From NCBI GenBank assembly GCA_963794325.1, contig CAWCDG010000004.1, positions 1,568,001-1,632,000 of the forward strand: a DNA stretch of 64,000 nt. Reading direction: 5' to 3'. This stretch comes from an uncultured delta proteobacterium. GTDB lineage: Bacteria > Desulfobacterota > Binatia > Binatales > Binataceae. The notes beneath the pieces were generated by a model. It had not been told where the DNA came from. It was given only the letters and a program-made list of their open reading frames with translations, and searched no databases. Positions within the stretch are counted from its first letter, which is position 1. Each line of letters opens with the position of its first letter. Of the stretch, positions 11,626 through 63,322 are shown piece after piece. Both the position numbers and the translations under genes were made by a program.

Positions 11626-11641
11626 GGCAAGGTCTGTGCCT
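11626..11641 (-). promoter_or_regulatory. sigma54 -24/-12 promoter motif
   Basis: Minus strand AGGCACAGACCTTGCC (GG-N10-GC), 86 bp upstream of the response regulator start. Confidence 0.65.
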
Positions 11642-11797
11642 TGCGGCCTTGACGGCAAAGCGCCAATTAAGGAGTGCGAGCAGATAGACCGCAATATCAG
11701 ACTCAAGGGTTGATCGAATTGAGACATACAACGTCGCTCTTTGGGACATTCTGCTCGCCTTGACACTGCGGGTCCCGGTGCGCGAAACGGATGCATC

Positions 11798-12538
11798 ATG
11801 AGCGAGAGGACCAGCGGATACACCCCTGCCGCATTGTGGCGAAGGCTGGGGTTGGCGCGCCACAACTGGCCGGGCAGGTTTACCGTTCTGCTCATGACGA
11901 TTATGCTGCTGCTCGTCACGCAGCCGATTTTCTCGGGCCACGCCTTTGCGGAGAATATTGCGACCGCGATGATCTCCTTCGTGCTGCTGGCTGCTCTTTA
12001 TGCGTTCCGCTCGACCAGGGGGTTTTTCGTCTTCAACCTGGTGCTGCTGGTTCCTTCGATCGGAGGCCGGCTGGCGCTGTTGTTCACGCCGAGCCCAACC
12101 GTCGAGGTGGTCAGCGCAATCTCTTCGTGCATGTTTTTGGCGGTGACAGTTATCGCACTGGTTTCCCGGCTATTCACAGTGAGAAGTGTTACGCTCGACA
12201 CGATCAGCGCCGGGATTTGCGCCTACTTGCTGATGGGCGTCGCGTTCGCGTATTCCTTCGCAGTCGTCGAACTGCAAAATCCACGTTCGTTCAGCGAGAC
12301 ACTTCTGCAAAGGCCCTTAGGCAATGGCGCGCCGCTGATCGCGTCGCTTCACAGCTTCATCTACTACAGCTTCGTGTGCCTGACGACGACCGGCTTCGGC
12401 GATATCTCGCCAGTCTCGGGAGGCGCCCGCAGCTTGTCGGTCATGGAATCAGTATTCGGCCAGTTGTATGTGGCGATTCTGATTGCGCGGCTGGTCAGCC
12501 TTGAGGTTGCGCAATCGATGATGAAGGAGCGGGAATAA
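11798..12538 (+). CDS. Potassium channel family protein (Ion_trans_2)
   Basis: Several TM helices; [17 protein letters not shown] selectivity filter; [14 protein letters not shown]. Confidence 0.88.
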
Positions 12539-12539
12539 G

Positions 12540-12995
12540 ATGTCCGGATTATATTTTGAGGAATTCGAAGTTGGCCATGTATTCAAGCATGCGATCACGC
12601 GAACGATCACGGAAACTGACAACCTGATCTTCTGCGCGCTCACGCACAATCCGCAGCCGCTCCATCTCGACGCGGAATTCGCCAAAGGCACAGAGTTTGG
12701 CCAGCGCATCGTGAACAGCATCTTCACACTGGGACTGATGATCGGAGTGTCGGTCGGAGATACGACGCTCGGTACCACGATCGCGAACCTGGGCATGGCC
12801 GATACGCGCTTTGCGCATCCCGTGTTCATCGGCGATACGCTGCGCGCCGAGACGACGGTCGCCGAGAAGCGCGAGAGTCGATCGCGGCCTGATTCGGGGA
12901 TCGTGGTGTTCGACCATCGATGCTTCAACCAGCGCGCGGAGGAAGTGGCGTACTGCAAGCGGTCGGCGCTGATGCGCAAGAGGCCGGCGTCATGA
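12540..12995 (+). CDS. MaoC-family (R)-enoyl-CoA hydratase/dehydratase
   Basis: [33 protein letters not shown]. Confidence 0.9.
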
Positions 12996-13870
12996 TTCTT
13001 CGCTCGCTGCTGTTCGTGCCGGGCGACAGCGAACGCAAGCTCGCGAAGTCGGAGTCCTCGCACGCCGACGCACTGGTGCTCGATCTCGAAGACGCGGTCG
13101 CGGCGGATCGCACCGAGATCGCACGCACGATGGTGCAGGAGTATCTGCGGGCGCATCGCGATCGCGCGAAGACTCAACTGTGGGTGCGCATCAATCCGCT
13201 GTCGACGACAAAGGCGATACTCGATCTGGCCGAGATCGTCGCCGGCGCGCCCGACGGAATCCTGCTTCCGAAGGTTACCTCAGCCAACGATGTCGTGATG
13301 CTCGATCACTTCCTGTCCGCTCTGGAAGCACGCGAAGGGATCAAGGAGGGATCGATCGCGATCATTCCAGTGGCCACCGAGACGCCGGCGGCGATGTTTG
13401 CGCTGGGCGGTTTCGCCGGATGCAGCCCGCGGCTGGCCGGCATGACGTGGGGTGCTGAAGACCTCGCGGCGGCGGTGGGCGCGACGACCAATCGCGACGC
13501 ATCGGGCAATCTGGATTTCACTTATCAACTCGCGCGCTCGCTCTGCCTGCTGGCGGCGGTGGCTGCCGACGTCCAGCCGATCGACACGGTGTCGGTAAAC
13601 TTCAAGGACGCCAGTGCGCTCAAGCAGGAATCGGAGAACGCGCGGCGCGCGGGCTTTACCGGCAAGATTGCGATTCATCCGGACCAGGTTGAGGTTATCA
13701 ACGATGCGTTCACTCCTTCGCCTGAAGATGTTGCCTATGCGAATCGGGTGATTGAAGCATTCGCGTCGGGCGCGGGCACCGTCGCGCTCGACGGGAAGAT
13801 GCTCGACATGCCTCATCTGAAACAGGCGCGCCGGATTCTCGGGCTCGCCGCATCGCTGCGTTCGCGGTAG
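12992..13870 (+). CDS. CitE/HpcH-family CoA-ester lyase
   Basis: [40 protein letters not shown]. Confidence 0.9.
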
Positions 13871-13902
13871 CGCTTCGAGGATAAAGATTGTGGCGAAAGC
13901 AG

Positions 13903-15084
13903 TCACTCCATCGGCAGGCCGACGTAGTTCTCGGCTAGTGTCTGAGACGCTGCGCGCGAGCTGGTGACGTAGTCGAGCTCGGCGAGCTGGCGGCGCTGGT
14001 CGAAGGGGTTGTCGCCGGCGAATCGATGAAGCATCGAGGTCATCCACCAGGAGAATCGCTGCACCTTCCAGACGCGTCGCAGGCAGATTTCGGAATACCT
14101 GGTCAGTAGGTCGCGGCTACCATTCGCGTAGTAATCAGTCAGGGCACGGGCAAGGACGCGAACGTCCGCGACTGCGAGGTTGAGGCCTTTCGCGCCAGTC
14201 GGCGGCACGATATGCGCCGCGTCGCCGGCGAGGAACAGCGTGCCGGATTGCATCGGCTCGACGACGAAGCTGCGCATCTCGGTGATTCCCTTTTGGAGAA
14301 CAGCGCCACGATTCAGTTTCCAGTCTTTGCCGGCCGCGAGTCTTAGATCGAGCTCGTCCCAGATTTTTTCGTCGGGCCATTGGCCGAGATCCTCGTCGGG
14401 GGCGCATTGCAGATAGAGCCGGGTGATTGTTGGCGATCGCATGCTGTGAAGCGCGAAGCCGCGATCGTGGTACGCGTAGATCAATTCGTCCGACGACGGC
14501 CGCGCGTCGGCGAGAATGCCCAGCCATGCGAATGGGTAGATGCGGTCGTACATAGTCAGAGCGCCAGCCGGGATACTCGGGCGGCATACGCCGTGGAAGC
14601 CGTCGCATCCGGCGATAAAATCGCACGACAGCTCGTGGACCGCGCCTTCGATGCGGTAGCGAATCTTCGGCGTCGGTCCGTCGAAGTCGTGGACGCTGAC
14701 GCCGGCTGCGTCGAAAATGATCTGACCGCCGGCAGCCAGCCGCGCCGCGATCAGGTCCTTGATGACTTCGTGCTGTGCGTAGATGGTGACGGTGCTGCCG
14801 CCGGTCAGACCGCTCAGATCGATGCGATGGCCATGGCCGCTGAAGCGCAACTCGATGCCGCGATGGGTCAGACCGAGCTGCTTGAGCCGATCGCCGACGC
14901 CGGTTTCAATCAGCAGGTTGACGGTGCCCTGCTCGAGCAAGCCGGCGCGGGCGCGATCCTCGACATGTTGACGGCTGCGCGCCTCGATGACGACGGACTC
15001 GATGCCGGCAAGATGCAGCAAATGCGAGAGCATCAGGCCCGCCGGGCCAGCGCCGACGATGCCGATTTGTGTGCTAGCATTCAT
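13903..15084 (-). CDS. pobA: 4-hydroxybenzoate 3-monooxygenase
   Basis: [63 protein letters not shown]; 393 aa. Confidence 0.95.
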
Positions 15085-15101
15085 TTCAGGCCCGCTGCGC
15101 A

Positions 15102-15224
15102 TACTATCATCCGGCATGGTGGTGGTGGGACTCGCAGCCGGCCCGAGAACATCGCGGCGGTGGTGGCGGAGGAGGCGGTGCGCATGCCGAAGGGCCACAT
15201 GGTGGAGGCTCCAGGCATCATTAG
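15102..15224 (+). pseudogene. Startless Gly/His/Trp-rich gene tail
   Basis: Reads [40 protein letters not shown]; in-frame stop at 15075 and no start codon between. Confidence 0.35.
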
Positions 15225-15264
15225 AGCTGAATCTGTGGTAGTTTCGAACACAGGAGGCGCAAGC

Positions 15265-62425: not shown

Positions 62426-62598
62426 CGAGCAGACCTTCCGTTCGTACCCGTCTTCCTTGCCAGGCCGCCAGCCGGTAACAGTCCGGCGCCGCACTAGCCT
62501 GACTTGCGAGGCTCGAACTCAGTAAGAAATATCGTCTCTTATAGTAAGTCTTTCATTCGATCATTCCTGCTTTAGCGCGATTTATTTGTGCAATCCAT

Positions 62599-62614
62599 TG
62601 GCGCGCTTCCTGCT
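62599..62614 (+). promoter_or_regulatory. sigma54 -24/-12 promoter motif
   Basis: TGGCGCGCTTCCTGCT, upstream of two micro-protein genes. Confidence 0.68.
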
Positions 62615-62677
62615 ATTTAAGCACTTGTCGATTCATAGATGGGTCGGCGGGGTGCAACAGGAAAAGGAAGTATTCAA

Positions 62678-62758
62678 ATGCGTTATGCGATTGCATGGCT
62701 TCTAGGTGTTCCGGCTTCGATTGTCATCCTCTGGTTCGTGCTGGGGCACATGCTCTAA
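62678..62758 (+). CDS. 26-aa single-TM micro-protein; not in the ORF track
   Basis: MRYAIAWLLGVPASIVILWFVLGHML*; AAGGA RBS; WLLGVP motif. Confidence 0.7.
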   Translation: MRYAIAWLLGVPASIVILWFVLGHML

Positions 62759-62834
62759 CTCCAAACTCAGGTCCATCTGAAAACGATGAACCCCGCGGAC
62801 AAAGTCGCGGCGACGCAATTTCAGGAAGACAGTT

Positions 62835-62987
62835 ATGAACCTAATATTACTAGTCCTACTCGTGGTTCTCTTGATCGGCGCATTGCCCGCCTGGCCGTAT
62901 AGTGCCGGCTGGGGCTACTATCCTAGCAGCGCGCTCGGGACGATCCTGGTCATAGTTCTCGTTCTCGCATTGCTTGGACGAGTCTAA
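62835..62987 (+). CDS. DUF3309-family small membrane protein; not in the ORF track
   Basis: MNLILLVLLVVLLIGALPAWPYSAGWGYYPSSALGTILVIVLVLALLGRV*. Confidence 0.92.
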   Translation: MNLILLVLLVVLLIGALPAWPYSAGWGYYPSSALGTILVIVLVLALLGRV

Positions 62988-63027
62988 GACTTCCGCTTCG
63001 TAGGCGATGGCCGTCAGTAGAAGCGAC

Positions 63028-63255
63028 CTACTGACGGTTCATCACCATTCCTGCGCCAATCAGGACAACGCCAAGAACCATCGCTCCCACGCTCACGATC
63101 GGCGGGATGAAGTGTGGTTCCTCAGTCTTGGCCTGAACTTTCAAGTCACCGAATTTCACCACGTCCTGGGTTCGCTCCGTATTGAAGGAGGGCATCGCAA
63201 AGGCGATGAGCCCTAGAAGCGCGACTATCGCGCCGAACATCATGATGCTTTTCAT
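63028..63255 (-). CDS. Small two-TM membrane protein (DUF3185-like)
   Basis: TM - TERTQDVVKFGDLKV - IPP - TM; GGAGG RBS. Confidence 0.8.
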   Translation of the reverse strand: MKSIMMFGAIVALLGLIAFAMPSFNTERTQDVVKFGDLKVQAKTEEPHFIPPIVSVGAMVLGVVLIGAGMVMNRQ

Positions 63256-63306
63256 TTCGGTTGTCCTCCAGAAAGTGTTACGTAGGTTCCGCAGGTCCGG
63301 CGAATA

Positions 63307-63322
63307 AGCAAGCCAAGTGCCA
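63307..63322 (-). promoter_or_regulatory. sigma54 -24/-12 promoter motif
   Basis: Minus strand TGGCACTTGGCTTGCT. Confidence 0.82.

Follow-up and report, generated by a model that had tools for sequence, protein, structure and literature searches.

Are the small stress-type genes of an uncultured Candidatus Binatus relative from soil (Binatota) transcribed from sigma-54 (RpoN)-type -24/-12 promoters, and do such promoters tie them into one regulon? The question is raised by a 64,000-nucleotide (nt) stretch of contig CAWCDG010000004.1 (positions 1,568,001–1,632,000; the window), all of which was analysed. An earlier note on this DNA had listed 13 intergenic sites close to the sigma-54 consensus and proposed that a general-stress gene set and the capsule are wired to sigma-54 and fed by clustered kinases. 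Our analysis indicates that the 13 sites are probably genuine sigma-54-type promoters, seven of which form a conserved island; these seven lie within 3.1 kb beside the gene of an NtrC-like regulator. That the sites form one stress regulon under this neighbouring regulator appears doubtful.

To locate the sites, we scored the motif TGGCACG-N4-TTGC (11 specified bases), the sigma-54 -24/-12 consensus, which is also written TGGCAC-N5-TTGCW and has its GG and GC doublets 10 nt apart. The matches were placed on a gene map of our own construction, built from open reading frames, codon-position GC, Pfam and NCBIfam with no formal gene call, in which 6,068 nt (9.5% of the window) are non-coding. All 13 reported sites were found, each with GG-N10-GC and 0–2 mismatches among the 11 specified bases, and their 15-mers begin at 11627(-), 26101(-), 27260(+), 35392(-), 35637(+), 41783(+), 60220(-), 60382(+), 60871(-), 60989(+), 62048(+), 62599(+), and 63308(-); the plus-strand coordinates given earlier are exact, while the minus-strand ones lay 1 base lower than the true 15-mers. 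Over the whole window the motif is not enriched: allowing 2 mismatches gave 21 matches where dinucleotide shuffles gave 26.4 ± 5.0, and allowing 3 raised these numbers to 188 and 232. The signal lies in the location of the matches and is visible because coding and non-coding DNA were separated: 13 of the 21 matches fall in the non-coding 9.5% (binomial P = 4.9e-9), and these are exactly the sites of the earlier note, with no others. A comparison with shuffled intergenic background, which that note had proposed as a check, supported it within the window, as spacer-only dinucleotide shuffles gave 1.87 ± 1.35 expected matches and a maximum of 8 in 1000 shuffles. The stricter pattern TGGC-N7-TTGC yielded 9 matches against 2.82 ± 1.75 expected; none of 100 shuffles reached this number, and seven of the matches are sites of the earlier note.

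Spacing and orientation of the sites point in the same direction. When the half-sites were set 0–9 nt apart, the intergenic excess in the window was confined to N4 among the ten spacers compared, with 13 intergenic and 8 coding matches, versus 0–6 intergenic and 9–26 coding matches at N0–N3 and N5–N9. Within coding DNA, the correctly spaced matches (8) are fewer than those at any wrong spacing, a scarcity that would fit selection against stray sigma-54 binding sites inside genes. Every site lies in a spacer and is directed at a start codon 17–231 nt downstream (for 60382, at a gene remnant 55 nt away). Five sites (26101, 41783, 60220, 62048, and 62599) occupy same-strand spacers with one productive orientation, and all five are directed at the downstream gene; the others stand between divergent genes or, in the case of 60382, ahead of the gene remnant. 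TTGC is followed by A or T in 10 of the 13 sites, and two sites (41783 and 62048) are perfect 11/11 matches. A sigma-70 pattern scan of 59800–64000, with a consensus that may not be that of this phylum, returned 1 match, inside the regulator gene, against 2.4 expected.

Comparison with related genomes revealed that most of these sites are conserved. Scanning species-representative genomes with the regulator protein yielded 20 loci, of which L001–L016 come from Candidatus Binatus-like metagenome-assembled genomes (MAGs) with 67–88% regulator identity, L020 is partial, and L017–L019 hold 34% paralogues. The gene order of EPS (exopolysaccharide) genes, regulator, small-gene island, and CHASE3 kinase is kept in the relatives, and 9 of the 13 sites have counterparts upstream of orthologues in up to 14 related Candidatus Binatus-like genomes, in agreement with the conservation that the earlier note had anticipated. 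In MAFFT alignments that were not motif-anchored, the -24/-12 elements appear as invariant blocks in otherwise diverged spacers. The regulator promoter is present in 15 of 15 aligned sequences with its 11 specified bases all invariant, and the promoter at 60382, which serves a lipoprotein gene in relatives, in 13 of 13 related loci and 15 of 15 aligned sequences. Among gene-bearing related loci, the DUF1328 promoter is found in 9 of 9, 37–41 nt upstream of the gene, and the CsbD promoter in 8 of 8, 65–69 nt upstream (two of them at 3 mismatches). The DUF6496 promoter recurs in 13 of 13 related loci together with its long leader, the L011 copy having TGGTAT at the -24 element, and the promoter of a 26-amino-acid (aa) micro-protein recurs in 12 of 12, as the identical 15-mer in 8 and as TGGCGCACTTCCTGC in 4. 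A correctly oriented site also stands upstream of a 75-aa gene in 8 of 8 related loci, at a distance of ~700 nt in six, 598 nt in L015, and 45 nt in L011; in L003 a DUF4142 gene lies between the conserved site and the 75-aa gene.

In motif-anchored comparisons of seven promoter classes (n = 9–15), the majority-base frequency is 0.94–1.00, against 0.52–0.66 in the flanks, and the GG and GC doublets are kept in all copies except the L011 DUF6496 site (GT). With N4, the spacing scan of the relatives (16 loci, 287,950 nt) gave 39 matches when 1 mismatch was allowed and 214 when 2 were, versus 2–21 and 81–127 at other spacers. This excess is limited to the island side (136 versus 25–55), the other side having 78 versus 42–79. 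The sites fit the -24/-12 class in spacing, position, orientation, and conservation in relatives, and the nine conserved ones are, judging from sequence, very probably sigma-54-type promoters; the assignment of 11627, 35392, 35637, and 41783 is less secure.

Within the island, nearly every small gene lies behind its own -24/-12 site. The regulator gene (58773–60203, minus strand, 476 aa) encodes a protein with a receiver, an AAA+ Sigma54_activat, and an HTH_8 domain, and its promoter TGGCACATCGGTTGC (60220–60234, minus strand) has the -12 GC 17 nt before the ATG at 60203. Divergent from it, CGGCACGGCGATTGC (60382–60396, plus strand) precedes a 33-codon remnant (60451–60552, plus strand) of the C-terminal end of the 130-aa Thr-rich lipoprotein gene of relatives, which in the window is without the 3' part of its leader, the start codon, and the signal peptide. 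The site had been assigned to DUF1328, an assignment that does not stand, as DUF1328 (60673–60834) lies on the other strand and is served by TGGCATAGTAGTTGC (60871–60885, minus strand), 37 nt before its ATG at 60834. A small RNA or micro-ORF (open reading frame) driven by 60382(+) was also considered and rejected, since what relatives have at this place is the lipoprotein gene, of which a deletion left the remnant in the window. TGGCCCTATCCTTGC (60989–61003, plus strand) lies 67 nt before the ATG (61070) of CsbD (61070–61267), downstream of which follows a BON protein (61282–61749). The perfect consensus site TGGCACGAGCATTGC (62048–62062, plus strand) stands 166 nt before the ATG (62228) of DUF6496 (62228–62425), and TGGCGCGCTTCCTGC (62599–62613, plus strand) stands 65 nt before the ATG (62678) of the 26-aa membrane micro-protein, with DUF3309 (62835–62987) downstream. 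TGGCACTTGGCTTGC (63308–63322, minus strand; 1 mismatch) serves the 75-aa two-helix membrane protein (63028–63255, minus strand), 53 nt before the ATG at 63255. Pfam supports the assignments of the receiver-AAA+-HTH_8 regulator, DUF1328, CsbD, BON, DUF6496, and DUF3309; the 75-aa protein, called DUF3185-like before, has no Pfam match at E <= 0.01.

The DUF6496 leader (62063–62227) shares with relatives 68% identity over 113 translated residues, part of a frame without a start codon. It contains a weak terminator-like hairpin (62166–62182), as does the leader of L003, and a GGAGG ~35 nt past the promoter is conserved in relatives and not in the window.

Comparison of the window with the relatives suggests that the window is a trimmed version of a richer island. 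In L003, BON and YflT-family genes lie between the regulator promoter and the regulator, and a four-gene unit encodes a protein that matches DUF883_C weakly (E = 0.004, short of the Pfam cut-off), two proteins without a family, and a Phage_holin_3_6-like protein. All 14 of the loci examined have the promoter of this unit, TGGCAGAyGAmTTGC, which the window lacks, and none of the extra genes of relatives (the BON-YflT pair, the DUF883 four-gene unit, and DUF4142) occurs anywhere in the window. In comparison with L001 and L003, over 60203–60234, 60397–60552, 60835–61069, and 63256–63322, the window is short of BON-YflT, most of the lipoprotein gene, the DUF883 unit, and DUF4142, while the island promoters are retained and joined more tightly to the gene that follows. 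ATGCC is found on either side of the BON-YflT gap, in the leader and at the regulator start, which makes a short-repeat deletion a plausible origin of this loss. The stress-type reading of the island is strengthened because the relatives carry BON, YflT, DUF883, Phage_holin_3_6-like, and DUF4142 genes behind the same promoters.

The sites outside the island precede receiver, kinase, LigD, and EPS units. CGGCACGTTTTCTGC (26101–26115, minus strand) lies 231 nt before the GTG (25870) of a 1699-aa poly-HAMP hybrid kinase, whose unit also includes a second hybrid kinase downstream (18697–20751). The identical 15-mer stands ahead of the poly-HAMP orthologue in L011, at 16392(+), and the orthologue in L020 has the site CGGCACATTTTCTGC (one change) ~130 nt upstream. 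TGGCACGCGCAATGC (27260–27274, plus strand; 1 mismatch) precedes by 45 nt the start (ATG at 27319) of a gene for a lipoprotein-like protein of 117 aa, after which come a LigD polymerase domain (27776–28678) and a cardiolipin synthase ending at 30066; its identical 15-mer in L011, at 14325(-), likewise precedes the orthologous 117-aa gene. AGGCACAGACCTTGC (11627–11641, minus strand; 2 mismatches) is separated by 87 nt from the ATG (11540) of a gene whose 268-aa product carries a receiver domain at its C terminus, and CGGCACGCGATCTGC (35392–35406, minus strand) by 190 nt from the ATG (35202) of the gene for a metallo-beta-lactamase-fold protein of 436 aa. TGGCATCTTCGTTGC (35637–35651, plus strand) is directed at a Wzy_C (O-antigen ligase-like) gene, with a beta-helix protein next; as only 17 nt separate the site from the ATG (35668), the 5' leader would be almost nil if the start codon is right. 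The second perfect consensus site, TGGCACGCGAGTTGC (41783–41797, plus strand), stands upstream of a Wza-like exporter gene, at a distance of 79 nt if translation starts at the ATG at 41876 and of 138 nt if it starts at 41935; this gene opens a ~17-kb run of same-strand EPS genes reaching 58762. Pfam backs the assignments of the receiver protein, the poly-HAMP hybrid kinase, the LigD polymerase domain, the cardiolipin synthase, and the Wzy-like, Wza-like, and other EPS genes, and together with NCBIfam it bears out most of the gene names in the earlier note.

Two of these units have further features. The poly-HAMP kinase (20771–25870) consists of 10 HAMP and 8 HAMP_2 stretches (Pfam) followed by GAF, HisKA, HATPase, and receiver domains, and is 92% identical over 1,675 residues to the L020 copy. 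Its 231-nt leader contains a long hairpin (GAGCAGGGTGCAAT...ATTGCACCCTGCTC) with a T run at ~25925–26010 (minus strand), which could be a terminator or an attenuator and whose sequence is not conserved in L011. L011 also has a 1-mismatch site, TGGCCCGCCTCTTGC (15085–15099), 52 nt before a DUF2383 (PA2169-family) gene. A corresponding site in the window was rejected; at the aligned place (27040–27060) TTAT replaces TTGC, so this promoter was apparently lost or never gained here.

In the mechanism that we infer, comprising sigma-54 dependence, upstream sites, a kinase role, a stress trigger, and a shared activator, sigma-54 RNA polymerase would sit closed on these promoters until a phosphorylated AAA+ enhancer-binding protein, ~60–200 nt upstream, remodels the complex and transcription starts. 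The activator would be bound at A/T-rich TGTA-N5-TACA / TArGAAAT elements, and the output would be a burst of small envelope and stress-type proteins, possibly also of the products of the capsule, DNA end-repair, and cardiolipin genes. A sigma-54 activator-type gene adjoins the cluster, and one with GSFTGA lies inside the island of five relatives. The best sensor candidate would be a CHASE3 sensor kinase at the far end of the island, of which the start (63441–64000, plus strand) is present before the gene runs off the window. In L012 the orthologous gene is complete and encodes a hybrid kinase composed of CHASE3, HisKA, HATPase, and receiver domains, and the kinase occupies this end of the island in 11 related loci; because this position is conserved, it is a better candidate than the poly-HAMP pair. 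The CHASE3 kinase of L003 (247–1417) and the regulator of L015/L016 (~10640–10750) align in two frames, which could reflect frameshifts or MAG assembly errors.

Candidate upstream elements were found near several promoters. AGTAAGAAATACA (60298–60310), of the TGTA-N5-TACA / TArGAAAT type, has its centre 71 and 79 nt from the GG of the divergent promoters at 60220 and 60382, and a block GTATTTCyTAC is present between the regulator and lipoprotein promoters in 15 of 15 sequences. CGTAATTTCTACA (27196–27208) is centred 59 nt before the GG of the 27260 promoter, in a region where L011 aligns poorly. A perfect palindrome, GATTGTA-AATAC-TACAATC (41581–41593), and a weaker copy, TGTAATCCTTTCA (41708–41720), lie 197 and 70 nt before the GG of the 41783 promoter, and AGTAAGAAATATC (62521–62533), conserved as GCGAACTCAGTAAGAAATG, lies upstream of the micro-protein promoter. 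The window contains 9 copies of GTA-N5-TAC, 6 of them intergenic, where 1.74 ± 1.26 would be expected (0 of 100 shuffles reached 9), and 12 copies of TGTA-N5-TACA when 1 mismatch is allowed, 8 of which lie in spacers. TARGAAWTA occurs 3 times against 0.32 expected, each time upstream of a sigma-54 site, as a pattern chosen after seeing the sites. Conserved blocks lie 60–115 nt upstream in several promoter classes; activator sites of sigma-54 promoters typically stand roughly 80–150 nt upstream. The blocks differ in kind: ATTACAyGGTTCyCACTT before DUF6496, GGAAAAAACTACCTAyTTCG before DUF1328, and the palindrome CyGTAAyTnTTACyG ~65 nt before the DUF883 promoter of relatives. No single upstream consensus for all classes could be derived, only an A/T-rich GTA...TAC / GAAAT family. 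We regard these elements as candidate activator sites, and they hint at a factor common to the island and at least some of the distant units. Three tandem TGTA-N5-TACA-type elements, TGTAAAATATACA, TGTAAAAGCTACA, and TATAAAATATACA, also occur at 38653–38700 in an AT-rich spacer before a Big_7 gene, with no sigma-54-type site nearby.

Several points count against the promoter assignments and against a single regulon. The sites 11627, 35392, 35637, and 41783 lie outside all fetched loci and draw their support from motif and position; with ~1.9 chance matches expected, one or two of the weaker ones among them could be false. The related loci represent one lineage, so the per-locus conservation counts are not independent events, and the per-gene and motif-anchored figures are inflated because the sites were picked by motif match. 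A search for the RpoN box in the window and the 20 related loci gave no match, and no rpoN gene was seen there. The upstream-site motif was derived in hindsight, and some promoter classes do not have it. The remaining points concern the regulator, which has GAFAGA at residues 229–234 of its L1 loop in place of GAFTGA and is therefore without the Thr or Ser at position 4, one of the features by which members of the activator family are defined. At this position the 78 closest sequences, when aligned, have A in 55 cases, P in 20, and T in 3. In Francke et al. (PMC3162934), proteins with Thr4 substitutions are treated as defective and probably sigma-54-independent.

In other respects the regulator resembles an activator. 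Its domains match PF00072, PF00158 (1.8e-56), PF25601, and PF02954 in Pfam, giving the receiver-AAA+-HTH_8 architecture, and its Walker A (GESGTGK) and its DE motif (Walker B) are conserved in the 78-member clade. The start is the second ATG, at 60203 (MPATS...), matching the MPA/MPV of relatives. The best NCBIfam scores of the regulator lie below the cut-offs for TIGR02915 (PrsR; 328.4 bits against 502.6), AtoC (328.4 against 714), and ZraR (308 bits), and the first of these scores rules it out as PrsR of the PEP-CTERM system. GAFAGA is common to 13 orthologous loci (L001–L010, L014, and L016 among them), and L011 has GAFPGA. Among the 120 nearest database proteins, the strict pattern gave GAFAGA in 40, GAFPGA in 17, and GAFTGA in 40, with GAFAGA in all close orthologues, GAFPGA in the next tier, and GAFTGA only at <=67% identity to the regulator. 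Because GAFAGA replaces GAFTGA, the island's own regulator cannot be assigned as an activator, and by published criteria the loop argues against its being one.

The alternative that fares best, to which we give somewhat less than an even chance, is that the promoters are real and are fired by another enhancer-binding protein, such as a paralogue with GSFTGA, the NtrC-like neighbour being either a sigma-70-type EPS regulator like VpsR, TyrR, DhaR, or HupR or a brake that competes for the upstream sites. A study of Escherichia coli PspF (PMC4132715) describes a T86A mutant whose ATPase is intact and which "fails to engage with RPc," the closed complex. Francke et al. (PMC3162934) report that changes at Phe and Thr of GAFTGA mostly abolish activity; that ~110 homologues carry such defects, Thr/Ser4-to-Pro being the preferred change in these non-functional homologues; that an A2-to-S change is functional in LevR; and that TyrR, DhaR, and HupR are sigma-70 dependent and VpsR has no GAFTGA element. 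A 452-aa activator-type paralogue with GSFTGA lies inside the island of L001 and L007–L010, and the regulator gene directly abuts the EPS locus. Against this alternative, the other loop positions are well kept in the 78-member clade (G 0.86, A 0.94, F 0.96, G 0.97, A 0.97), as are Walker A and B, a pattern that simple loss of function would not predict. In addition, the window does not contain the GSFTGA paralogue, nor does the island of nine loci (L003–L006, L011, L012, and L014–L016), where the promoters are still conserved.

The 13 promoters may instead belong to several independent sigma-54 operons (stress island, EPS, and kinases) with different activators and signals in a signalling-rich region, which is quite possible though on balance improbable. 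Activator specificity resides in the upstream sites and not in the sigma-54 promoters, and the conserved upstream blocks differ between the DUF6496, DUF1328, and DUF883 classes; moreover, the kinase and LigD units of L011 are placed differently relative to the island, and the island of relatives contains two activator-type genes. Set against this are the GTA-N5-TAC / TArGAAAT element, found 25–80 nt upstream of the regulator/lipoprotein pair, micro-protein, poly-HAMP, and lipoprotein-LigD promoters, and the TGTA-N5-TACA-type elements before the wza promoter; such common elements hint at a factor shared by the island and distant units. That the matches arose by chance or are the site of another DNA-binding protein, as the flat whole-window count and the lack of rpoN in the window and 20 loci would allow, is very improbable given their intergenic concentration, the strict N4 dependence in the window and 16 related loci, an asymmetric motif oriented towards the gene throughout, two perfect matches, GG and GC kept in all but one copy over seven classes, and the activator-type genes alongside.

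A few further elements of the window were noted. At 31616–31670, CGTAGTTTTTACA is followed 30 nt on by TGGCACGGATCCCTGC (31655), which has a near-consensus -24 element and stands ahead of a gene at 31771 without an assigned function; as a 14th site it was ruled out by its GG-N11-GC spacing, one base too long. A weak 3-mismatch site with intact GG and GC, CGGCACCATAATCGC (30179–30193), is directed at a PAS histidine kinase gene at 30487, and an inverted repeat, GGTAAT-N13-ATTACC (30330–30355), lies between the two. At 15270–15844, a DUF433 gene and a DUF5615/PIN-like gene overlap by 20 nt in a toxin-antitoxin-like layout. An Rfam search for known RNAs, made over the whole window with the long leaders in mind, gave 0 matches at gathering scores.

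The gene content of the island is of the general-stress kind, with CsbD, BON, DUF1328, DUF3309, and DUF6496 in the window and BON, YflT, DUF883, and DUF4142 in relatives. The earlier note had counted CsbD, OsmY/BON, YtjA, and LigD among typical stress-regulon members; OsmY/BON, LigD, and YqjD/ElaB (DUF883) belong to stress regulons of other bacteria, and OsmY/BON and YqjD/ElaB are sigmaS targets. For the CsbD-like YjbJ and the DUF1328 protein YtjA, a Salmonella study (PMC5437024) supports the claim, describing both as small proteins tightly controlled by sigmaS, and the Pfam description of YflT is that of a heat-induced stress protein. A tentative and rather unlikely reading is that in the Binatus lineage sigma-54 does the job of sigmaS, sigmaB, or EcfG, the small general-stress genes each having their own -24/-12 promoter in a compact, self-transcribed island, and the GAF(A/P)GA regulator, unable to contact sigma-54 in the usual manner, being a feedback element or having a new contact loop.

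Sigma-54 promoters are silent until an ATPase activator fires, which is unusual among sigma factors. For this reason, a stress battery on sigma-54 would, if true, be all-or-none and signal-gated and would not depend on sigma competition. For an uncultured phylum, the locus offers a testable regulatory map of the ways in which these inhabitants of soil and peat may cope with desiccation or osmotic stress, and a conserved GAF(A/P)GA regulator in a sigma-54 island is a natural test of whether Thr4 of GAFTGA is indispensable. In the literature searched, with subscription journals and supplements outside its scope, nothing beyond co-mentions links RpoN to CsbD, DUF1328, DUF3309, DUF883, or YtjA, and the sole full-text match to "GAFAGA" is an unrelated bacteriocin paper. 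The main text of a 2025 cross-phylum survey of sigma-54 regulons (PMC12316311) contains neither "general stress" nor CsbD nor Binatota, and that of the Binatota genome paper (PMC8262859) contains neither "sigma" nor rpoN.

Comparison with known systems places the locus between several of them. Like the NtrB/NtrC, ZraS/ZraR, and AtoS/AtoC-type regulons, it combines -24/-12 promoters, a receiver-AAA+-HTH_8 regulator behind its own sigma-54 promoter, and a kinase nearby. Unlike them, its regulator has GAFAGA and NCBIfam scores far below the cut-offs, and where those regulons target one or two operons, many single small genes here have their own promoters. Sigma-54 also serves stress or envelope responses with a dedicated activator in PspF-psp, RtcR-rtcBA, NorR, and ZraR-zraP; the likeness lies in this use of sigma-54, whereas Pfam and NCBIfam scans of the window found no PspA, RtcB, or ZraP-type genes, and the gene set is of the kind seen in sigmaS, sigmaB, and EcfG regulons. 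Those general stress regulons match in gene content, but the promoters here are of the -24/-12 class, which needs an ATPase activator and not an alternative sigma-70-family factor, and the window contains no sigmaS/sigmaB/EcfG-type sigma gene. In Borrelia (PMC2940757), a receiver-domain activator (Rrp2) and sigma-54 likewise stand atop a global stress and adaptation response; there sigma-54 drives a single gene, rpoS, which drives the regulon, whereas here stress-type genes carry sigma-54-type promoters directly.

The EPS side of the locus has its own parallels. Francke et al. 2011 (PMC3162934) describe conserved links between sigma-54 and genes for exopolysaccharides, lipids, and lipoproteins, and this cell-exterior theme, together with PrsK/PrsR of the PEP-CTERM system, resembles the sigma-54 promoters ahead of EPS export and biosynthesis genes here. 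Several of these EPS genes resemble XrtA/PEP-CTERM locus families, but all scores are below the cut-offs (exporter 94.6 versus 180, chain-length determinant 117.6 versus 278.9, ATPase 187.7 versus 324.5), and no exosortase was identified in the window. With the GAFTGA-defective homologues TyrR, DhaR, HupR, and VpsR the regulator shares an AAA+ protein with a changed sigma-54 contact loop, and VpsR regulates polysaccharide production. In contrast to these homologues, its loop is otherwise conserved, with no deletion, and its gene lies behind a conserved sigma-54-type promoter inside an island of such promoters. Two-component sigma-54 regulons and sigma-54 control of EPS and the cell exterior are thus already known; the novelty lies in the targets and their arrangement, since here, in an uncultured phylum, general-stress-type small genes that each have a sigma-54-type promoter are grouped in a compact island beside a variant-loop regulator.

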